From: an uncultured Bacilli bacterium | GTDB taxonomy: Bacteria > Bacillota_I > Bacilli_A > RF39 > UBA660 | DNA length: 64,000 nt | Assembly (NCBI GenBank): GCA_944371905.1 | Contig: CALVYA010000001.1 | Location: forward strand, 5,627 to 69,626 | Reading direction: 5' to 3' | In this document: positions 52,136-59,814 of the stretch, piece by piece | Layout of the letters: each line of letters starts with the position of its first letter | Position numbering within the stretch: the stretch's first letter is position 1 | The notes under the pieces: generated by a model | Database searches by the model: none | The model's input: only the letters and a program-made list of their open reading frames with translations | Told to the model about the DNA's origin: nothing | Made by a program: the position numbers and the translations under genes

Positions 52136-52177
52136 GAAATAGGTAGAAAAGAGATAATTATTTATTAGGTGGTTTAT

Positions 52178-52858
52178 ATGAACTATTTAATAAAAGATAT
52201 AAAAAAGGAAGAACGTCCAAGAGAACGATTCATTAGAGATGGTGTTGAATCATTATCTAATGAAGAACTATTGTCAATTATCCTAAAAACTGGTACTAAA
52301 GATAGATCTGTGAAAACTTTAGCAATGGATCTTTTAAATTCTATTGATAATATTAGTGAGTTAAAAAATATTACGGTTAATAAATTATTATCTATCAAAG
52401 GAATAGGAATGGTAAAAGCAATTGAAATTATTTCATCTATTGAACTTGGAAGAAGAATTTATATTGAGAAAAAAGTAATGAAGAAGAAGTTTACTAATTC
52501 CTATGACATATATTTAGAAAATAAATATTTATTTTTAGACAAAAAACAGGAATATTTTTATTGCTTATATTTAAATAATAAAAATGAACTTATAGAAAGG
52601 AGATTATTATTTATGGGAACAGTTAATAAAAGTGTAGTTCACCCGAGAGAAGTTTTTAAACATGCATATTTAACATCAGCATCTAGTATTGTATGCATGC
52701 ATAATCATCCCAGTGGTGATGTAACACCATCTAAAGATGATATTATGTTTACTAAAGCTTTAGTAGAAGTAGGAAGGATTCAAAGTATTCCAATAATAGA
52801 TCATATTATTGCAGGAAGCGATAATTATTACAGTTTTTCTGATAATGGAATAATATAG
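52178..52858 (+). CDS. radC: RadC-like JAB-domain protein (UPF0758)
   Basis: Helix-hairpin-helix N-terminus and JAMM-like MHNHPSGDVTPSKDD motif. ATG 52178 follows SD TAGGTGG. Confidence 0.85.
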   Translation: MNYLIKDIKKEERPRERFIRDGVESLSNEELLSIILKTGTKDRSVKTLAMDLLNSIDNISELKNITVNKLLSIKGIGMVKAIEIISSIELGRRIYIEKKVMKKKFTNSYDIYLENKYLFLDKKQEYFYCLYLNNKNELIERRLLFMGTVNKSVVHPREVFKHAYLTSASSIVCMHNHPSGDVTPSKDDIMFTKALVEVGRIQSIPIIDHIIAGSDNYYSFSDNGII

Positions 52859-52869
52859 GAGAAATAAAC

Positions 52870-53610
52870 ATGAAAAAAATAGATTTCAAATATCAATTTA
52901 TAATATTTATTATAAGTGGAGGAATACTTTTTTCCTTACTATTTTTTTCTATTAAATACAATTGGAATTACTCTTTTATTTTAAGAGATATTTTATATTT
53001 TCCTATTAATGTCATAGTTCCTGATAATGAACAAGATATAGTTTTAGAAGGAAGAGAGCTAGAACTTCAAAAAGAAGTGAATGAATTAAAAGAATTATTA
53101 GAAATAAATAATAGTTTAACCGACTTTACTTCTGTAAATGCCACGGTTGTTAATAGAAATACAGCTTATTGGAATAGCCAGATTACTATCAATAAAGGTA
53201 GTAATTCAAAAATAAAAGAAGGAATGGCAGTAATAGATGGTAATGGATTAGTTGGAAGAGTTGAAAAAGTTGGTTTTAATACATCGGTTGTTAAATTAAT
53301 TACTAATAATTCTAGTAATAATAAAATTTCAGTAAAAATATGGGCAAACGGGGAAGAAATTAATAAAGTACTTACTATTGATGAAGATAATAATATGATT
53401 ATTTCTGGAATTGATAATAGTTTTAAATTAGAAGAGGGAGCTTTAGTTACTACTAGTGGTTTAAGTGATATTTATCCTAGTGGAATTATTATTGGTTATG
53501 TAGATAAAGTAGAAAATGATAAATTTGGTATTAGTAAAAGAGCTTATATTAAACATAAAAGTAATTTAGACAACATCAGATTTGTATCTGTATTAATAAG
53601 GAGTTCCTAA
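52870..53610 (+). CDS. mreC: rod shape-determining protein MreC
   Basis: N-terminal TM, coiled coil (ELQKEVNELKELLE), beta-domain motifs (GMAVIDGNGLVGRVEKV). Position after radC as in Firmicutes. Confidence 0.8.
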   Translation: MKKIDFKYQFIIFIISGGILFSLLFFSIKYNWNYSFILRDILYFPINVIVPDNEQDIVLEGRELELQKEVNELKELLEINNSLTDFTSVNATVVNRNTAYWNSQITINKGSNSKIKEGMAVIDGNGLVGRVEKVGFNTSVVKLITNNSSNNKISVKIWANGEEINKVLTIDEDNNMIISGIDNSFKLEEGALVTTSGLSDIYPSGIIIGYVDKVENDKFGISKRAYIKHKSNLDNIRFVSVLIRSS

Positions 53611-54092
53611 TGAAAAAGTATATAATGTTTATAATTTCTATAATGATTGACGGACTGATACCAAATGTTACTTTATTTAATTATAATAATATTACTTATT
53701 TTAATCCGTTATGTACGGTTGTTAGCTTAGTTTTTTTATATAATGATAAAAAAGATTTTGTAAAATTGTGGCTCATGTCTAGTATTATATATGGTGCCTT
53801 ATATATTAATAATTTGTTTTTAAGTTTTATTATTTTCTTCATTGTTCTAATGACTATAAAGGGATTAAAAAAATTATTTAGCGATAATCTTATTATTAAT
53901 TTAATTCAAGTTATGTTAGTTATTTGTATATATGATTTTATATTTTTTAGCATTAATTCTTTAATTATTACTAATAAATTTATTTGGGAAGATTATTTTT
54001 ACAAAGTTTTTCATTCTATTATTTTAAATTTTATTTATGGAATCATCCTTTTCTTTGTTTTTCCTAAAAAAAGTTCTAAATTAAATTATTAG
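53610..54092 (+). CDS. mreD: rod shape-determining protein MreD (polytopic membrane)
   Basis: 160 aa, 4-5 TM helices. ATG overlaps the mreC stop (TAATG). Confidence 0.6.
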   Translation: MKKYIMFIISIMIDGLIPNVTLFNYNNITYFNPLCTVVSLVFLYNDKKDFVKLWLMSSIIYGALYINNLFLSFIIFFIVLMTIKGLKKLFSDNLIINLIQVMLVICIYDFIFFSINSLIITNKFIWEDYFYKVFHSIILNFIYGIILFFVFPKKSSKLNY

Positions 54093-54109
54093 TTAATAAT
54101 GTTTAATGG

Positions 54110-54721
54110 GTGATATTAGTGGAGGAATATAAAAGTTTAAGTAAATTTTATAATAAGAAAAATAATAGTAGTAATAAAAAGAATTATAAGTTTTTATATA
54201 AAGTTATTACTAAGATACTAATATGTTTGATTATTTTTGTTACTTTGTTAATTGTGGTAAAAGTAAAACCGGAATTAAAAGACAAAATATATGATTTTGT
54301 GTATGAAGATCAGTTTTCTTTCTCATATGTGAATAATTTATATAAAAAATACTTTGGAGATATTTTACCTTTTGAAAATATAGCACCAGAGGATGAAAAA
54401 GTTTTTAATGAGAAATTAGAGTACGATAATGCAAGTTTATATAAGGATGGAGTTGCTTTGGAAGTTAATAATAATTACTTAGTTCCAATTATTGAAAGTG
54501 GTATTGTGGTATTCATAGGTGAAAAAGAAAATTATGGTAATACTGTTATTGTACAACAAATAGATGGTATTGATGTTTGGTATGGTAATGTTAATATTTC
54601 TGATATAAAAATATATGATTATGTTCAAAAAGGCACTTTATTAGGTGAAGTATTAGATAATAATTTATATCTTGTATTTCAAAAAGAAGGGAAGTATTTA
54701 GATTATAAAGACTATATCTAA
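54110..54721 (+). CDS. SpoIVFA-like membrane protein with degenerate LytM/M23-like C-terminal domain
   Basis: Cytoplasmic N-terminus, one TM helix, C-terminal beta domain (VPIIESGIVVFIGEKENYGNTVIVQQIDGIDVWYGN) lacking catalytic His residues. Immediately upstream of the S2P protease. Confidence 0.5.
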   Translation: MILVEEYKSLSKFYNKKNNSSNKKNYKFLYKVITKILICLIIFVTLLIVVKVKPELKDKIYDFVYEDQFSFSYVNNLYKKYFGDILPFENIAPEDEKVFNEKLEYDNASLYKDGVALEVNNNYLVPIIESGIVVFIGEKENYGNTVIVQQIDGIDVWYGNVNISDIKIYDYVQKGTLLGEVLDNNLYLVFQKEGKYLDYKDYI

Positions 54722-55463
54722 AAATATTTATATTCATCCACTTTTTTGGACAATAATAATTATTAGTTTAGCGTCTGGTTTATTTAAAAATATTATTTTT
54801 TTTACTAGTATTATTTTCATTCATGAATTAGGCCATTTTTTAATGGCAAAAGTTTTAAATTGGAAGGTCGATAAAATATATTTTTATCCCTATGGAGGAT
54901 ATACTAAATTCAATGATGATTTAAATAGACCTAAGAAAGAAGAGTTACTAATAATGATAATGGGGCCCATTTTTCAAACTGTTTATTATTTATTAATATC
55001 TAATTTTTTAACAATAAATGAATTATCTTTGTTTAAGAATTATCATTATTCAATTCTTTTTTTTAATTTATTACCAATTTATCCACTAGATGGTGGTAAA
55101 CTTTTAAATATTATTATTAATTATTTTGTATCATTTAGAAAAAGTTTTCGCCTAACTATTTTGATTTCCTATATGTGTATTGTGGTAATTAGTTATTTTT
55201 TTATTTTCAAAAATATTAATGTTTCTTTAAGTTTATTTTTGATTGTTATTTTAATAATTTGTAAATTGACAAATGAGTTAAAAAAAGAACGATTTTATTT
55301 TAATAAATTTTTATTAGAACGACATTTAAATGATTATAAATTCCCGAAAATAAAGGTAATAAGTGATTTACAGTATATGTCAAGAGATTATAAACATGTT
55401 ATCTTTAGAAAAGGAAAAACAAGAAGTGAAAAAGAAGAATTATCCAATTACTTTCGACATTAA
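54702..55463 (+). CDS. spoIVFB: SpoIVFB-like site-2 (M50) intramembrane metalloprotease; N-terminal TM1 and HELGH motif lie upstream of the first ATG (non-canonical start or ATG-to-ATA change)
   Basis: The frame is open from the stop at 54699. The segment ..KNIYIHPLFWTIIIISLASGLF...FIHELGHFLMAKVL...YPYGGYTKFNDDLNRPKKEELLIMIMGP is colinear with recalled B. subtilis SpoIVFB (IHVHPFLW...HELGH...LPFGG...RPLKEEF..IAGP). The track ORF starts at ATG 54843, after HELGH. Candidate starts are ATT 54702 or ATA 54705, 11-14 nt after GAAGGGAAG. Confidence 0.65.
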   Translation: MIKTISKNIYIHPLFWTIIIISLASGLFKNIIFFTSIIFIHELGHFLMAKVLNWKVDKIYFYPYGGYTKFNDDLNRPKKEELLIMIMGPIFQTVYYLLISNFLTINELSLFKNYHYSILFFNLLPIYPLDGGKLLNIIINYFVSFRKSFRLTILISYMCIVVISYFFIFKNINVSLSLFLIVILIICKLTNELKKERFYFNKFLLERHLNDYKFPKIKVISDLQYMSRDYKHVIFRKGKTRSEKEELSNYFRH

Positions 55464-55563
55464 AATACATTTTTTGTAAAGTTTGTGTAAAGTGTATTGA
55501 CTTATAAATAAGACGTTGCTAGAATGAAATTACAGTAATGATAATAGTCGAGGGGGAAGTACT

Positions 55564-57570
55564 ATGGATAAAGATGATAAAAAGAAAAAAAATAATGAAC
55601 CAAAAAAGAAACAGCAAGTAATCAAAGAGGAGGATATGATTAAAGATAGTGACTACGAAGATTCTGGTGAAGGTAAGAAAATAGTTATAGTTGCTTTGAT
55701 TTTGGCACTTTTAATTGGTGGTTTTGCTTATGTTAGAAGTCTGGAAAAAAAGAAAGATGATAGTCTAAATATAGAAGAACCACAGGATGAAGAAAATGAT
55801 AACGATGATGAAGAAGAAGAATTGCCAAACGAAGAAGAAACAACTAGTGATACAACTACTAATTATCAACCAACACCTGTACCTAATAATACTGAAGAGA
55901 ATCCTGTTGATATTTGGAAGAGTTTAAAAGATGTTCCTACTTTAGTAGAAGCAGGTACAGTTATGTCTTTACCTACAGTAACGGTAGATGATAATGGGAC
56001 TAAAGTAGAAGCGCTTATTACTTATAAATTTAGAAGTAATATAGAAGAGGAATATGTAACTGTTAGTAGTTTTGATACAACTAAAATTGGTGAATATTTA
56101 ATTACTTATACAATAAGTTTTAAAGATGGTAAGGTAGAGACTAAAGATTTAGTTATCACAGTTAATGATACTGTAGAACCAATTATTAATAATGTTGTAG
56201 ATGGAGAATACTATAATAGTGATATATTGTTAGATATTACTGAGTATAGTCCATATATTGTTGAGTTGAATGGTGTTATTTATGATGCTAGTAAACCAAT
56301 AACTGAAGATGGTGAGTATACTTTAGTAGTGACTGAGGATAAAACAAATGGTAAGAGTATTACTGTGTCATTTGTACTTGATAAAAGTGTTCCTACTATT
56401 TTAGGAGTAGAAGATAAAGCATATTATAATAGTGGAGTAGTAATTGAAGTAGGTGATGATAATCTTTTAGACATTTTATTAACTAAAGATGGTGTAGAAT
56501 ATAGTTTTGTTAATGGAGTTACTAATATAACAGAAGATGGAACTTATCAAATAGTTGCATCAGATAAAGCAGGAAATATTAATTCATATACTTTTGTAAT
56601 AGATAATGTTGCTCCAACAGTAGAAGTGACTTATACACCTAATAGTGAGGAATTAACTAGTGAAGATGTATTAGTAACAATTACTTCTAATGAAGCATTG
56701 CAAGAATTAGAAGGATGGACATTATTAGAAGATAAATTAACATTAACAAAAGAATTTAGTGAAAATATTACAACTACATTTGAAGTAAAAGATTTAGCTG
56801 GAAATCCAGTTGACGTTACTATCGTTATTGATTTTATTGATCATAATGTTAGTTATTCACCAAAATTAACAATTGAAAATCTAGTAGCAAATAAAGTAAA
56901 AGCTACTATCACATCATTAAAACAATTGATAATTAATGATGATAGTTGGATAGAAATAGTAGAAGATGGACTATATAAATATGAAAAAATTTATAGTGAA
57001 TCTGTAACTGAAATAGTTCAATATGAAGATCTAGAAGGAAATGCTGGAACAATAGAAGTTAAAATTGATATGGAATTAAATGATTTATTTGTAACTTATC
57101 AAGAAGATCCAGATACTCAAAACGTAACAGCATATGTTACAACAGAAGAAGAAGTATTAGAAGTTCCAGAAGGATGGGCACTAGATACTGAATATCAAGA
57201 AGATTATAGATATTATAAGGTTTATACAGAAAATGTAGATTATGAATTAGTTGAATTTGTAACTAATAGTAAATATTATGTTGCAACTATAATTATTGAT
57301 TCAATAGATAGAGATGCACCTGTGGCAACTGCTAGTGTTACTTATATAACTGAAGAAGAAGAGAAGAAACAAGTAGTTATTACAGTTTCTGCTAATGAAG
57401 TTATTAATGGTATGGACGGATGGAGTTTATCAGAAGATAAAAAAACATTAGTGAAAATAATTGATAAACCAACTGTTGATATTCCAACAGATGAACTAAA
57501 TGAGAGCATTACTATAACGGATTTAAAAGGTAATGAGACTATAATAAGTTATACATATAATTGGAATTAA
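55564..57570 (+). CDS. membrane-anchored surface protein with acidic linker and repeated Ig-like/beta domains
   Basis: Lys-rich cytoplasmic N-terminus, one TM helix, DEEND acidic stretch, then several about 90-aa beta-rich repeats (..TDxVxPxI..). No catalytic motif. Confidence 0.5.
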   Translation: MDKDDKKKKNNEPKKKQQVIKEEDMIKDSDYEDSGEGKKIVIVALILALLIGGFAYVRSLEKKKDDSLNIEEPQDEENDNDDEEEELPNEEETTSDTTTNYQPTPVPNNTEENPVDIWKSLKDVPTLVEAGTVMSLPTVTVDDNGTKVEALITYKFRSNIEEEYVTVSSFDTTKIGEYLITYTISFKDGKVETKDLVITVNDTVEPIINNVVDGEYYNSDILLDITEYSPYIVELNGVIYDASKPITEDGEYTLVVTEDKTNGKSITVSFVLDKSVPTILGVEDKAYYNSGVVIEVGDDNLLDILLTKDGVEYSFVNGVTNITEDGTYQIVASDKAGNINSYTFVIDNVAPTVEVTYTPNSEELTSEDVLVTITSNEALQELEGWTLLEDKLTLTKEFSENITTTFEVKDLAGNPVDVTIVIDFIDHNVSYSPKLTIENLVANKVKATITSLKQLIINDDSWIEIVEDGLYKYEKIYSESVTEIVQYEDLEGNAGTIEVKIDMELNDLFVTYQEDPDTQNVTAYVTTEEEVLEVPEGWALDTEYQEDYRYYKVYTENVDYELVEFVTNSKYYVATIIIDSIDRDAPVATASVTYITEEEEKKQVVITVSANEVINGMDGWSLSEDKKTLVKIIDKPTVDIPTDELNESITITDLKGNETIISYTYNWN

Positions 57571-59115: not shown

Positions 59116-59814
59116 ATGTTTTTTTCATTAATAGAATTAATTAAAAGCCTTATGTTTTTTACTGCGTCATATTCTAATAATATTTTTCCCGATCCACTAA
59201 CAAAAGAAGAAGAAGATAAATATATAGAATTATCAAGATTAGGTGATAAAGATGCTAGGAATAAATTAATTGAACATAATTTGAGATTGGTTGCGCATAT
59301 TGTTAAAAAATTTGATTATAAGAATGTTGATCAAGATGATCTTATTAGTATAGGGACGATTGGACTCATTAAGGGAGTAGATTCTTATTCTTATAAGCAT
59401 GGCACTAAAATAACTACATATTGTGCAAAATGTATTGAAAATGAAATCTTAATGTTTTTTAGAACAAATAATAAAAATAATAAGAATATCTCAATTAATG
59501 AACCGATAGGATTTGATAAAGAAGGTAATGAAATAACTATTTTAGATGTATTAAAAATGCCAAAACCAGATTTTGCTGAAGAATTGCAAATAAAAGATAA
59601 TATTGAGTTATTAAAAAAATATATTAAATGTTTAAATGCACGTGAAAAAGAGATATTAATAAGACGATATGGACTTAATAATACTTCTGAACAAACCCAA
59701 AAGGAAATTGCAAAAGATTTAAAAATTTCAAGGAGTTATGTTTCGAGGATAGAAAAAAGAGCTTTAACTAAAATTTTTAGAGAATTTATGAGGAATAAAA
59801 AATGTGACAATTAA
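59116..59814 (+). CDS. sigK: pro-sigma-K (late mother-cell sporulation sigma factor), uninterrupted
   Basis: Recalled from memory, near-colinear with B. subtilis pro-SigK (S|YSNNIFPDPLTKEEEDKYIELSRLGDKDARNKLIEHNLRLVAHIVKKF, TKITTYCAKCIENEILM, ISRSYVSRIEKRAL). About 20-aa pro-sequence retained. No intervening element. Confidence 0.85.
   Translation: MFFSLIELIKSLMFFTASYSNNIFPDPLTKEEEDKYIELSRLGDKDARNKLIEHNLRLVAHIVKKFDYKNVDQDDLISIGTIGLIKGVDSYSYKHGTKITTYCAKCIENEILMFFRTNNKNNKNISINEPIGFDKEGNEITILDVLKMPKPDFAEELQIKDNIELLKKYIKCLNAREKEILIRRYGLNNTSEQTQKEIAKDLKISRSYVSRIEKRALTKIFREFMRNKKCDN

Follow-up and report, generated by a model that had tools for sequence, protein, structure and literature searches.

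A SpoIVFB-like sporulation protease gene of uncultured gut Bacilli is probably translated from a near-cognate AUU or AUA codon inside the preceding spoIVFA-like gene

The closest described systems to the locus reported here are the Bacillus subtilis protease SpoIVFB and the genes that begin at near-cognate start codons. The locus itself is a spoIVFB-like gene in a 64,000-nucleotide stretch of DNA, hereafter the window, from an uncultured Bacilli bacterium (GTDB lineage Bacillota_I; Bacilli_A; RF39; UBA660; assembly GCA_944371905.1, contig CALVYA010000001.1, positions 5,627 to 69,626). In Escherichia coli, infC and pcnB have AUU starts, and the deposited B. subtilis SpoIVFB begins MNKWLDLILK, with a normal Met. 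Conserved AUU and AUA starts with extended Shine-Dalgarno (SD) sequences were described in Staphylococcus aureus for cvfC1 (AUU), ccpN (AUA), and infC (AUA), and they gave about 10% of the output of AUG (PMC13009471). Streptomyces sigR, with a GTC start, is reportedly kept at a low level through IF3 discrimination (PMC5472188). In B. subtilis, SpoIVFB forms a complex with SpoIVFA, whose C-terminal domain faces the intermembrane space and is cleaved there by SpoIVB and CtpB (PMC9042235). SpoIVFB has six transmembrane (TM) helices and a cytosolic C-terminal CBS domain, and hence a cytosolic N-terminus; its zinc ligands are H43, H47, and D137, and its catalytic residue is E44 (PMC11486902).

We consider, with a probability of about 0.78, that the window encodes an intact, functional SpoIVFB translated from a near-cognate AUH codon (AUU, AUA, or AUC) directly after an in-frame TAG, with AUU at 54702 the most likely codon and AUA at 54705 a possible one. 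The elements of the junction are the following.

54119-54721, plus strand: SpoIVFA-like gene with a short cytoplasmic N-terminus, one TM segment, and a degenerate M23/LytM domain; stop codon TAA at 54719-54721.
54686-54694, plus strand: SD sequence GAAGGGAAG, inside the SpoIVFA-like coding sequence (codons K-E-G-K), within its last ten codons.
54699-54701, plus strand: in-frame stop TAG, the upstream limit of the SpoIVFB frame, produced where the overlapping gene reads Leu-Asp (TTA GAT).
54702-54704, plus strand: ATT, favored initiation codon (codon 1), with a 7-nucleotide (nt) SD spacer.
54705-54707, plus strand: ATA, alternative initiation codon (codon 2), with a 10-nt SD spacer.
54843-54845, plus strand: first ATG (Met48), an internal codon wrongly taken as the start by gene callers.

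After the TAG, the sequence reads ATT (54702) ATA (54705) AAG ACT ATA TCT AAA AAT ATT TAT ATT CAT CCA and onward. Translation of 54699-55466 shows that the 47 codons of 54702-54842 encode IIKTISKNIYIHPLFWTIIIISLASGLFKNIIFFTSIIFIHELGHFL, including the first TM segment (TM1) and the HELGH motif, and that ATG, GTG, and TTG occur zero times before the ATG at 54843. An earlier sequence-only reading of the window had described this open, start-less frame, and direct reading confirmed it. No other genuine gene in the window has so long an open stretch lacking a canonical start. The chance that 47 codons would remain free of stops in noncoding DNA of 24 to 27% GC is about 0.015, as estimated from the base composition of the window. 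All of the other window genes examined (50/50) have a canonical start available, none with a comparable start-less stretch, and all but a few have a good SD there or close by. The lack of a normal start is specific, within the window, to the spoIVFB gene. Genome-wide relaxed start usage was considered and is unsupported, given the canonical starts of those 50 genes.

The product of the full open frame was identified as a SpoIVFB ortholog with an intact N-terminus. Its coding sequence and diagnostic segments are listed here.

54702-55463, plus strand: full-length coding sequence of a SpoIVFB-like S2P/M50 intramembrane metalloprotease, 253 amino acids plus stop, supported by Pfam, a PDB match, AlphaFold2, and Foldseek.
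54726-54782, plus strand: TM1, approximately residues 9-27, IYIHPLFWTIIIISLASGL, which aligns to B. subtilis IHVHPFLWIIAALGLLTG.
54822-54836, plus strand: HELGH zinc-binding and catalytic motif, residues 41-45, in TM2, which aligns to B. subtilis H43, E44, and H47.
55083-55097, plus strand: PLDGG motif, residues 128-132, with Asp130 as the third zinc ligand (D137 in B. subtilis).

The 253-amino-acid conceptual product matched Pfam Peptidase_M50 from residue 31 (E = 1.2e-19) and, by phmmer, the cryo-electron microscopy chain of B. subtilis SpoIVFB, 8vjl_A (E = 4.9e-33, query residues 8-211 against chain residues 10-217). In that alignment, the stretch before the ATG is homologous to B. subtilis residues 10-49 (IHVHPFLW...HELGH), bearing out the colinearity that the sequence-only reading had proposed. 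An AlphaFold2 model built on 38 homologs had a predicted local distance difference test score (pLDDT) of 94.4 and a predicted template-modeling score of 0.86, and it was confident over residues 1-47. The top Foldseek match of the model was again 8vjl_A (E = 1.8e-16, query template-modeling score 0.85, 268 columns), and the model showed the SpoIVFB fold: a six-TM core, a re-entrant beta-hairpin with strands at 56-62 and 65-70 between TM2 and TM3, and a C-terminal cytosolic domain. In the model, the TM1 helix spans residues 13-24 at a pLDDT of about 93, and TM2, at residues 28-51, carries HELGH. Residues H41, E42, G44, and H45 are invariant in the 38 homologs, and P128, L129, D130, and G131 are invariant in the homolog alignments; the surrounding sequence is LLPIYPLDGG here and LLPIWPLDGG in B. 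subtilis. Because HELGH lies upstream of 54843, a product begun at Met48 would be without three of the four zinc and catalytic residues. An NCBIfam scan found no match to a SpoIVFB-specific model and only a weak RseP match, so the identification is based on the PDB match, Pfam, and the comparison of structures.

A scan of GTDB species representatives recovered 80 loci, one of them partial, and the remaining 79 together with the window made up the 80 species analyzed. The scanned loci all come from uncultured, low-GC gut Bacilli labeled as Bacilli, Tenericutes, Mycoplasmatota, Clostridium sp. CAG:417, or Candidatus Faecimonas (Bacilli incertae sedis). In 52 of the 80 species the stop is followed directly by ATT, and in another 13 the stop is followed by ACT, GTT, AAT, CTT, AGT, or AAG and then by ATA, ATC, or ATT; neither layout offers a canonical start that retains TM1. 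Codon 2 is the only AUH codon available in the latter 13. A canonical start is available in the remaining 15 species. It may be an ATG five codons upstream (MEKFKIIK...), a TTG directly after the stop and before ATT (L065, L071, and L090), an ATG at codon 3 (L025), or one of a few other positions, some of them further upstream (L050, for example). Most of these canonical starts lie within -5 to +3 codons of the site equivalent to 54702, and full-length database homologs have the same N-terminal boundaries. In most species, the comparison thereby places the N-terminus of the family between 5 codons before and 3 codons after 54702, where mostly only AUH codons are found. A stop stands directly before codon 1 in 70 of the 80 species (TAG in 42, TAA in 27, and TGA in 1); among these 70, codon 1 is ATT in 53 and codon 2 is ATA, ATC, or ATT in 69, the same bases being fixed also by the overlapping upstream frame.

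The codons before the ATG are conserved as coding sequence. The ratio of nonsynonymous to synonymous substitution rates (dN/dS) was calculated for codons 8-47, beyond the overlap with the upstream gene, against four orthologs of 64 to 88% identity; it was 0.03 to 0.27 and indistinguishable from that of the next 55 codons. The coding frame is intact over all 253 codons. These comparisons indicate that the stretch before the ATG is translated and under purifying selection. The exact 206-amino-acid protein that starts at the ATG was found on at least 23 contigs from several projects, of which ten (L001-L010) were fetched. Over 54640-54860, these ten independent metagenome contigs differ from the window at a single base in one contig, downstream of HELGH. 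The noncanonical layout recurs in the nearest other species (L011, at 88% identity) and in 64 more.

The SD sequence is strong and well placed. The sequence-only reading had put the ATT and ATA 11 to 14 nt downstream of it; measured from the SD end, the distances are the 7 and 10 nt listed above, and the earlier figure fits roughly only from the middle of the motif (10 to 12 nt from GGG to ATT). SD-anti-SD energies were computed with an assumed anti-SD, the standard Bacillota 16S 3' tail rather than one from this genome, and on that basis the energy at ATT 54702 is -10.8 kcal/mol, compared with medians of -9.3 kcal/mol for 34 ATG genes in the window and -3.1 kcal/mol for 2000 random positions, only 0.85% of which reach -10.8 kcal/mol. 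The ATG at 54843 has an energy of -3.2 kcal/mol, and the median at the junction across the 80 species is -8.0 kcal/mol. GGG is the Gly codon within the SD for 37 of 77 species, compared with a 7% share of Gly codons in window genes, which suggests selection for an SD inside the SpoIVFA coding sequence. An RNA structure that might gate the start was not apparent, the fold of 54660-54770 being no better than shuffles (z = 0.13), and a search for an internal promoter or terminator at the junction gave nothing above the shuffled expectation.

The case for initiation at AUU or AUA is made up of four parts: a start is needed upstream of TM1, alternative starts are absent, a strong SD lies at a suitable spacing, and canonical starts of relatives occur at the site. 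It does not depend on conservation of the ATT and ATA triplets themselves. The rare ATT or ATA start that the sequence-only reading had offered as one of its options is thus supported, as what is left once error and pseudogene are excluded, the choice between the two codons being our inference. In the mechanism that we propose, the SD at 54686-54694 would position the ribosome at AUU 54702, with AUA 54705 serving as an alternative or additional start, and the initiator tRNA would read either codon as Met. SpoIVFB would probably be made at a low level, since AUU and AUA are far less efficient than AUG and the site lies within a translated gene. Its synthesis would be tied to translation of SpoIVFA, keeping the protease substoichiometric to its inhibitor partner. 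The position of the proposed start, 20 nt within spoIVFA, and the complex of the partners in B. subtilis make such coupling plausible. The comparisons establish that the N-terminus is coding and intact, that canonical starts are lacking, that the layout is conserved, that the SD is strong and well spaced, and that the protein is SpoIVFB; the exact start codon, its low efficiency, the coupling, and any regulatory benefit are inferred.

The overlap bears on what is conserved at the junction. The upstream protein matched Pfam Peptidase_M23 (E = 1.6e-10), and the last 20 nt of its gene overlap the SpoIVFB frame in a different frame, with the TAA beginning 17 nt after the AUU does. Counted from codon 1 through the upstream stop, the overlap measures 20 nt in 49 species and 23 nt in 30. 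The SpoIVFA-like C-terminus, ...LYLVFQKEGKYLDYKDYI followed by the stop, is conserved in the 80 species. Read in the SpoIVFA frame, the ATT-ATA bases are positions 2 and 3 of an Asp or Asn codon (GAT or AAT), a near-invariant Tyr codon (TAT), and the first base of a Lys or Gln codon (...KYLDYKDYI, then stop). Codon bias in the window is strong, with GAT at 93%, TAT at 93%, and TTA at 67% of Leu codons. The overlapping frame and this bias would keep ATT and ATA conserved without any role in initiation. The in-frame stop, too, is a by-product of Leu TTA and a following G or A in the overlapping frame, and easy mutation to ATG is blocked, as it would replace the conserved Tyr.

These and other points weigh against our reading, and we gather them here. 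Conservation of ATT and AT[ACT], forced also by the overlap, is not independent proof of start function. Codon 1 is not AUH in 13 species, so that a single universal start codon cannot be named. The proposed start codon was assigned from sequence, and the organisms are uncultured metagenome-assembled genomes. The SD energies depend on the assumed anti-SD given above. The weak start may be a frozen constraint rather than an adaptation, persisting as dual coding blocks ATG, and any "tuning" benefit of a weak start is speculative. The stronger proposal, that the weak AUH start is an actively maintained dosage device, strikes us as unlikely. Under that proposal, SpoIVFB would be made only by ribosomes leaving or queued on spoIVFA, so that a low SpoIVFB:SpoIVFA ratio would be hard-wired and the sigma-K checkpoint could not fire early.

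Some features of the upstream gene bear on the overlap. Its start is most likely GTG 54119 (SD -9.7 kcal/mol) and not the first GTG at 54110 (SD +0.8 kcal/mol), and gene callers on contigs L001-L009 likewise chose the 200-amino-acid form. A Tyr (LDYK) in the C-terminal tail (54707-54721) occupies the same position in 79 of 80 loci, and its near-invariant TAT supplies the T-AT of both candidate starts. Canonical M23/LytM domains usually have Pro at this position (the "DP" motif). It is a possibility that the overlapping start has shaped the upstream protein, through Tyr in place of the usual Pro. At L067 the junction is ATT ACG AAA; it is the only locus with Tyr-Glu in the overlapping frame, and it uses the rare Tyr codon TAC exactly where TAT would create an ATG at SpoIVFB codon 2. 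As an anecdote, this would fit selection against a strong start, and as a single case it may be due to chance. For the dosage-device proposal, the TAC of L067 and the Tyr that replaces the M23 "DP" Pro and fixes xxT-ATx give hints of canonical-start avoidance.

Another route to the N-terminus is reinitiation, which we judge to be distinctly unlikely. It is a mechanistic variant of AUU/AUA initiation, with the same start codon reached differently: ribosomes finishing at TAA 54719-54721 would move back approximately 17 to 20 nt and restart at AUU or AUA under relaxed start scrutiny, giving SpoIVFB in fixed proportion to SpoIVFA. An overlap of exactly 20 or 23 nt in all but one of the 80 species, the location of the start within a translated open reading frame (ORF), the SpoIVFA-SpoIVFB complex of B. 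subtilis (PMC9042235), and the lack of an RNA structure that would otherwise gate the site (z = 0.13) are all consistent with it. However, a strong, well-spaced SD with rare-codon enrichment suggests that ordinary 30S recruitment suffices, and overlaps of 20 to 23 nt are longer than the -1/-4 nt overlaps in which termination-reinitiation is reportedly best documented (PMC6728339, PMC10666635).

A programmed +1 frameshift between 54702 and 54719 would carry ribosomes from the SpoIVFA into the SpoIVFB frame, producing a SpoIVFA-SpoIVFB fusion with no separate start; we judge this very improbable. The canonical ATG and TTG starts of relatives at the same position show independent initiation. A fusion would also meet a conflict of topology, with the SpoIVFA C-terminal domain in the intermembrane space and the SpoIVFB N-terminus in the cytosol. 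The required shift across the 20-nt overlap is indeed +1, an SD-like element lies upstream, and on the conserved TAT AAA G a shift of tRNA-Lys from AAA to AAG is conceivable, but no stop or rare A-site codon occurs at a plausible slip site within 54702-54719, and the distance up to the SD is 8 nt or more. The prfB frameshift, by comparison, has a slippery P-site codon followed by a stop or hungry codon and an SD approximately 3 nt upstream.

Short frames upstream of the TAG were also noted. An ATG lies 15 nt upstream of codon 1 in 29 of the 70 loci with the stop (L025, L028, L032, L034, L037-L042, and others). The resulting ATG-NNN-NNN-NNN-stop is a potential four-codon mini-ORF that ends exactly at the AUU and occurs where SpoIVFA has Asp/Asn-Gly in the overlapping frame (GAT/AAT GGN); the window, with GAA GGG there, does not have it. 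A few lineages have lost the stop, and in them the mini-ORF ATG becomes the annotated start (MEKFKIIK...). Readthrough of TAG 54699 was considered and rejected. In the window, the upstream frame offers only 9 codons, beginning at TTG 54672, and no SD is visible there; readthrough from the ATG five codons upstream is not general, this ATG being present in the 29 of 70 species noted and not in the window.

We also judge it very improbable that the gene is degraded, or that its only product is the 206-amino-acid form from ATG 54843, which, without TM1 and HELGH, would be catalytically dead and would leave sigma-K activation independent of SpoIVFB. Gene callers and public databases annotate that form, and loss of sporulation would be unsurprising in an uncultured, reduced, low-GC gut bacterium. 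Nevertheless, the codons before the ATG have a dN/dS of 0.03 to 0.27, HExxH is invariant, 70 of 80 species have the frame opening at this very codon position, the SD at ATG 54843 is poor (-3.2 kcal/mol), and the full-length model is confident over residues 1-47. Pro-sigma-K, moreover, keeps a pro-sequence that needs removal, and an active protease is therefore needed.

59116-59814, plus strand: sigK, encoding pro-sigma-K, the presumed substrate, identified by NCBIfam matches.

The sigK product scored 301 bits with TIGR02846 (cutoff, 298.65) and 312.8 bits with the NCBIfam SigK model NF004471. Its N-terminal pro-sequence is MFFSLIELIKSLMFFTAS, ending in ...FFTAS, after which the protein continues YSNNIFPDPL. 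The sequence-only reading had pointed to an intact pro-sigma-K at 59116 with a conserved Ser-Tyr cleavage context, and the matches and the pro-sequence agree with it. The sporulation context is present, in the form of the spoIVFA-like gene next to spoIVFB and of a sigK whose product has a cleavable pro-sequence. The pseudogene that the same reading had listed is excluded by the purifying selection on the codons before the ATG, the layout in 65 of 80 species, and the full-length SpoIVFB fold.

An error of sequencing or assembly, or an ATG-to-ATA/ATT substitution confined to one strain, which that reading had also raised and which has nothing for it beyond the missing canonical start in one window, is excluded by ten assemblies from different projects that are identical at the junction, with no ATG at 54702-54707, and by the noncanonical layout of L011 and 64 others.

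The lack of a canonical start leaves a mark in the databases. Entries of the SpoIVFB family in this clade end up at 169, 206, 230, or 240 amino acids, begun at various internal Met, Leu, or Val codons, and this systematic truncation follows from the noncanonical layout. The 206-amino-acid entries P0001, P0018, P0021, and P0024 begin at ATG 54843, and the protein clusters P0022 and P0046 are truncated as well. The 206- and 169-amino-acid forms are without HExxH, and their precomputed Pfam matches are absent or "faint." Surveys of sporulation capacity or of M50 proteases will score the SpoIVFB gene of this clade as defective or "faint."

The gene order over 52169-55463 is radC-mreC-mreD-spoIVFA-spoIVFB, and mreB and minC/minD are absent from the stretch; B. 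subtilis has mreB and minC/minD in this cluster, between mreD and spoIVFA. Directly downstream of spoIVFB, a 668-amino-acid ORF (55564-57570) encodes a protein with one TM segment, an N-terminus that is acidic and of low complexity, and a long repetitive region that looks extracellular. The ORF had no Pfam or NCBIfam match, and it occurs at the same position in all of the identical contigs L001-L009.

Set beside B. subtilis SpoIVFB (8vjl/8vjm), the protein described here is colinear from TM1 to the C-terminal domain and shares the HELGH and PLDGG zinc ligands, the six TM helices, and the re-entrant beta-hairpin. Also shared is the position directly downstream of a SpoIVFA-like M23-domain gene, with pro-sigma-K encoded nearby. 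The two proteins differ in length (253 amino acids here and 288 in B. subtilis) and are about 28% identical, and the N-terminus here is 2 residues shorter in the alignment; the B. subtilis protein begins with a normal Met, and the gene here has no ATG, GTG, or TTG available. Like translationally coupled overlapping pairs, spoIVFA and spoIVFB are co-directional and overlapping, encode subunits of one complex, and have the downstream SD inside the upstream ORF, but they overlap by 20 to 23 nt where 1 or 4 nt is usual, and the proposed downstream start is noncanonical.

A conserved near-cognate start that limits expression is a known kind of feature. Like infC, pcnB, cvfC1, ccpN, and sigR, the spoIVFB genes would combine an AUU or AUA start across species with a strong or extended SD in a setting where gene dosage is plausibly important. 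However, none of those genes is a sporulation gene or encodes a membrane protease. The proposed start of spoIVFB, moreover, lies 20 nt inside the preceding gene, where dual coding constrains the start codon, and its AUH codon shifts between two adjacent positions across species. Full-text literature searches found no report of a noncanonical spoIVFB start. With this locus, a developmental membrane protease would join the short list of genes with conserved AUU or AUA starts, and the 20-nt overlap offers a clear case in which dual coding both preserves and constrains a start codon. Late sporulation has SpoIVFB as its checkpoint protease. A weak start shared across the clade and placed in the gene of the inhibitor partner would be a simple means of setting the protease-to-inhibitor ratio. 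What is new in comparison with the known systems is that the gene encodes the sigma-K checkpoint protease, that the layout is found in 65 of 80 species, and that the proposed start is embedded in the gene of the partner protein.

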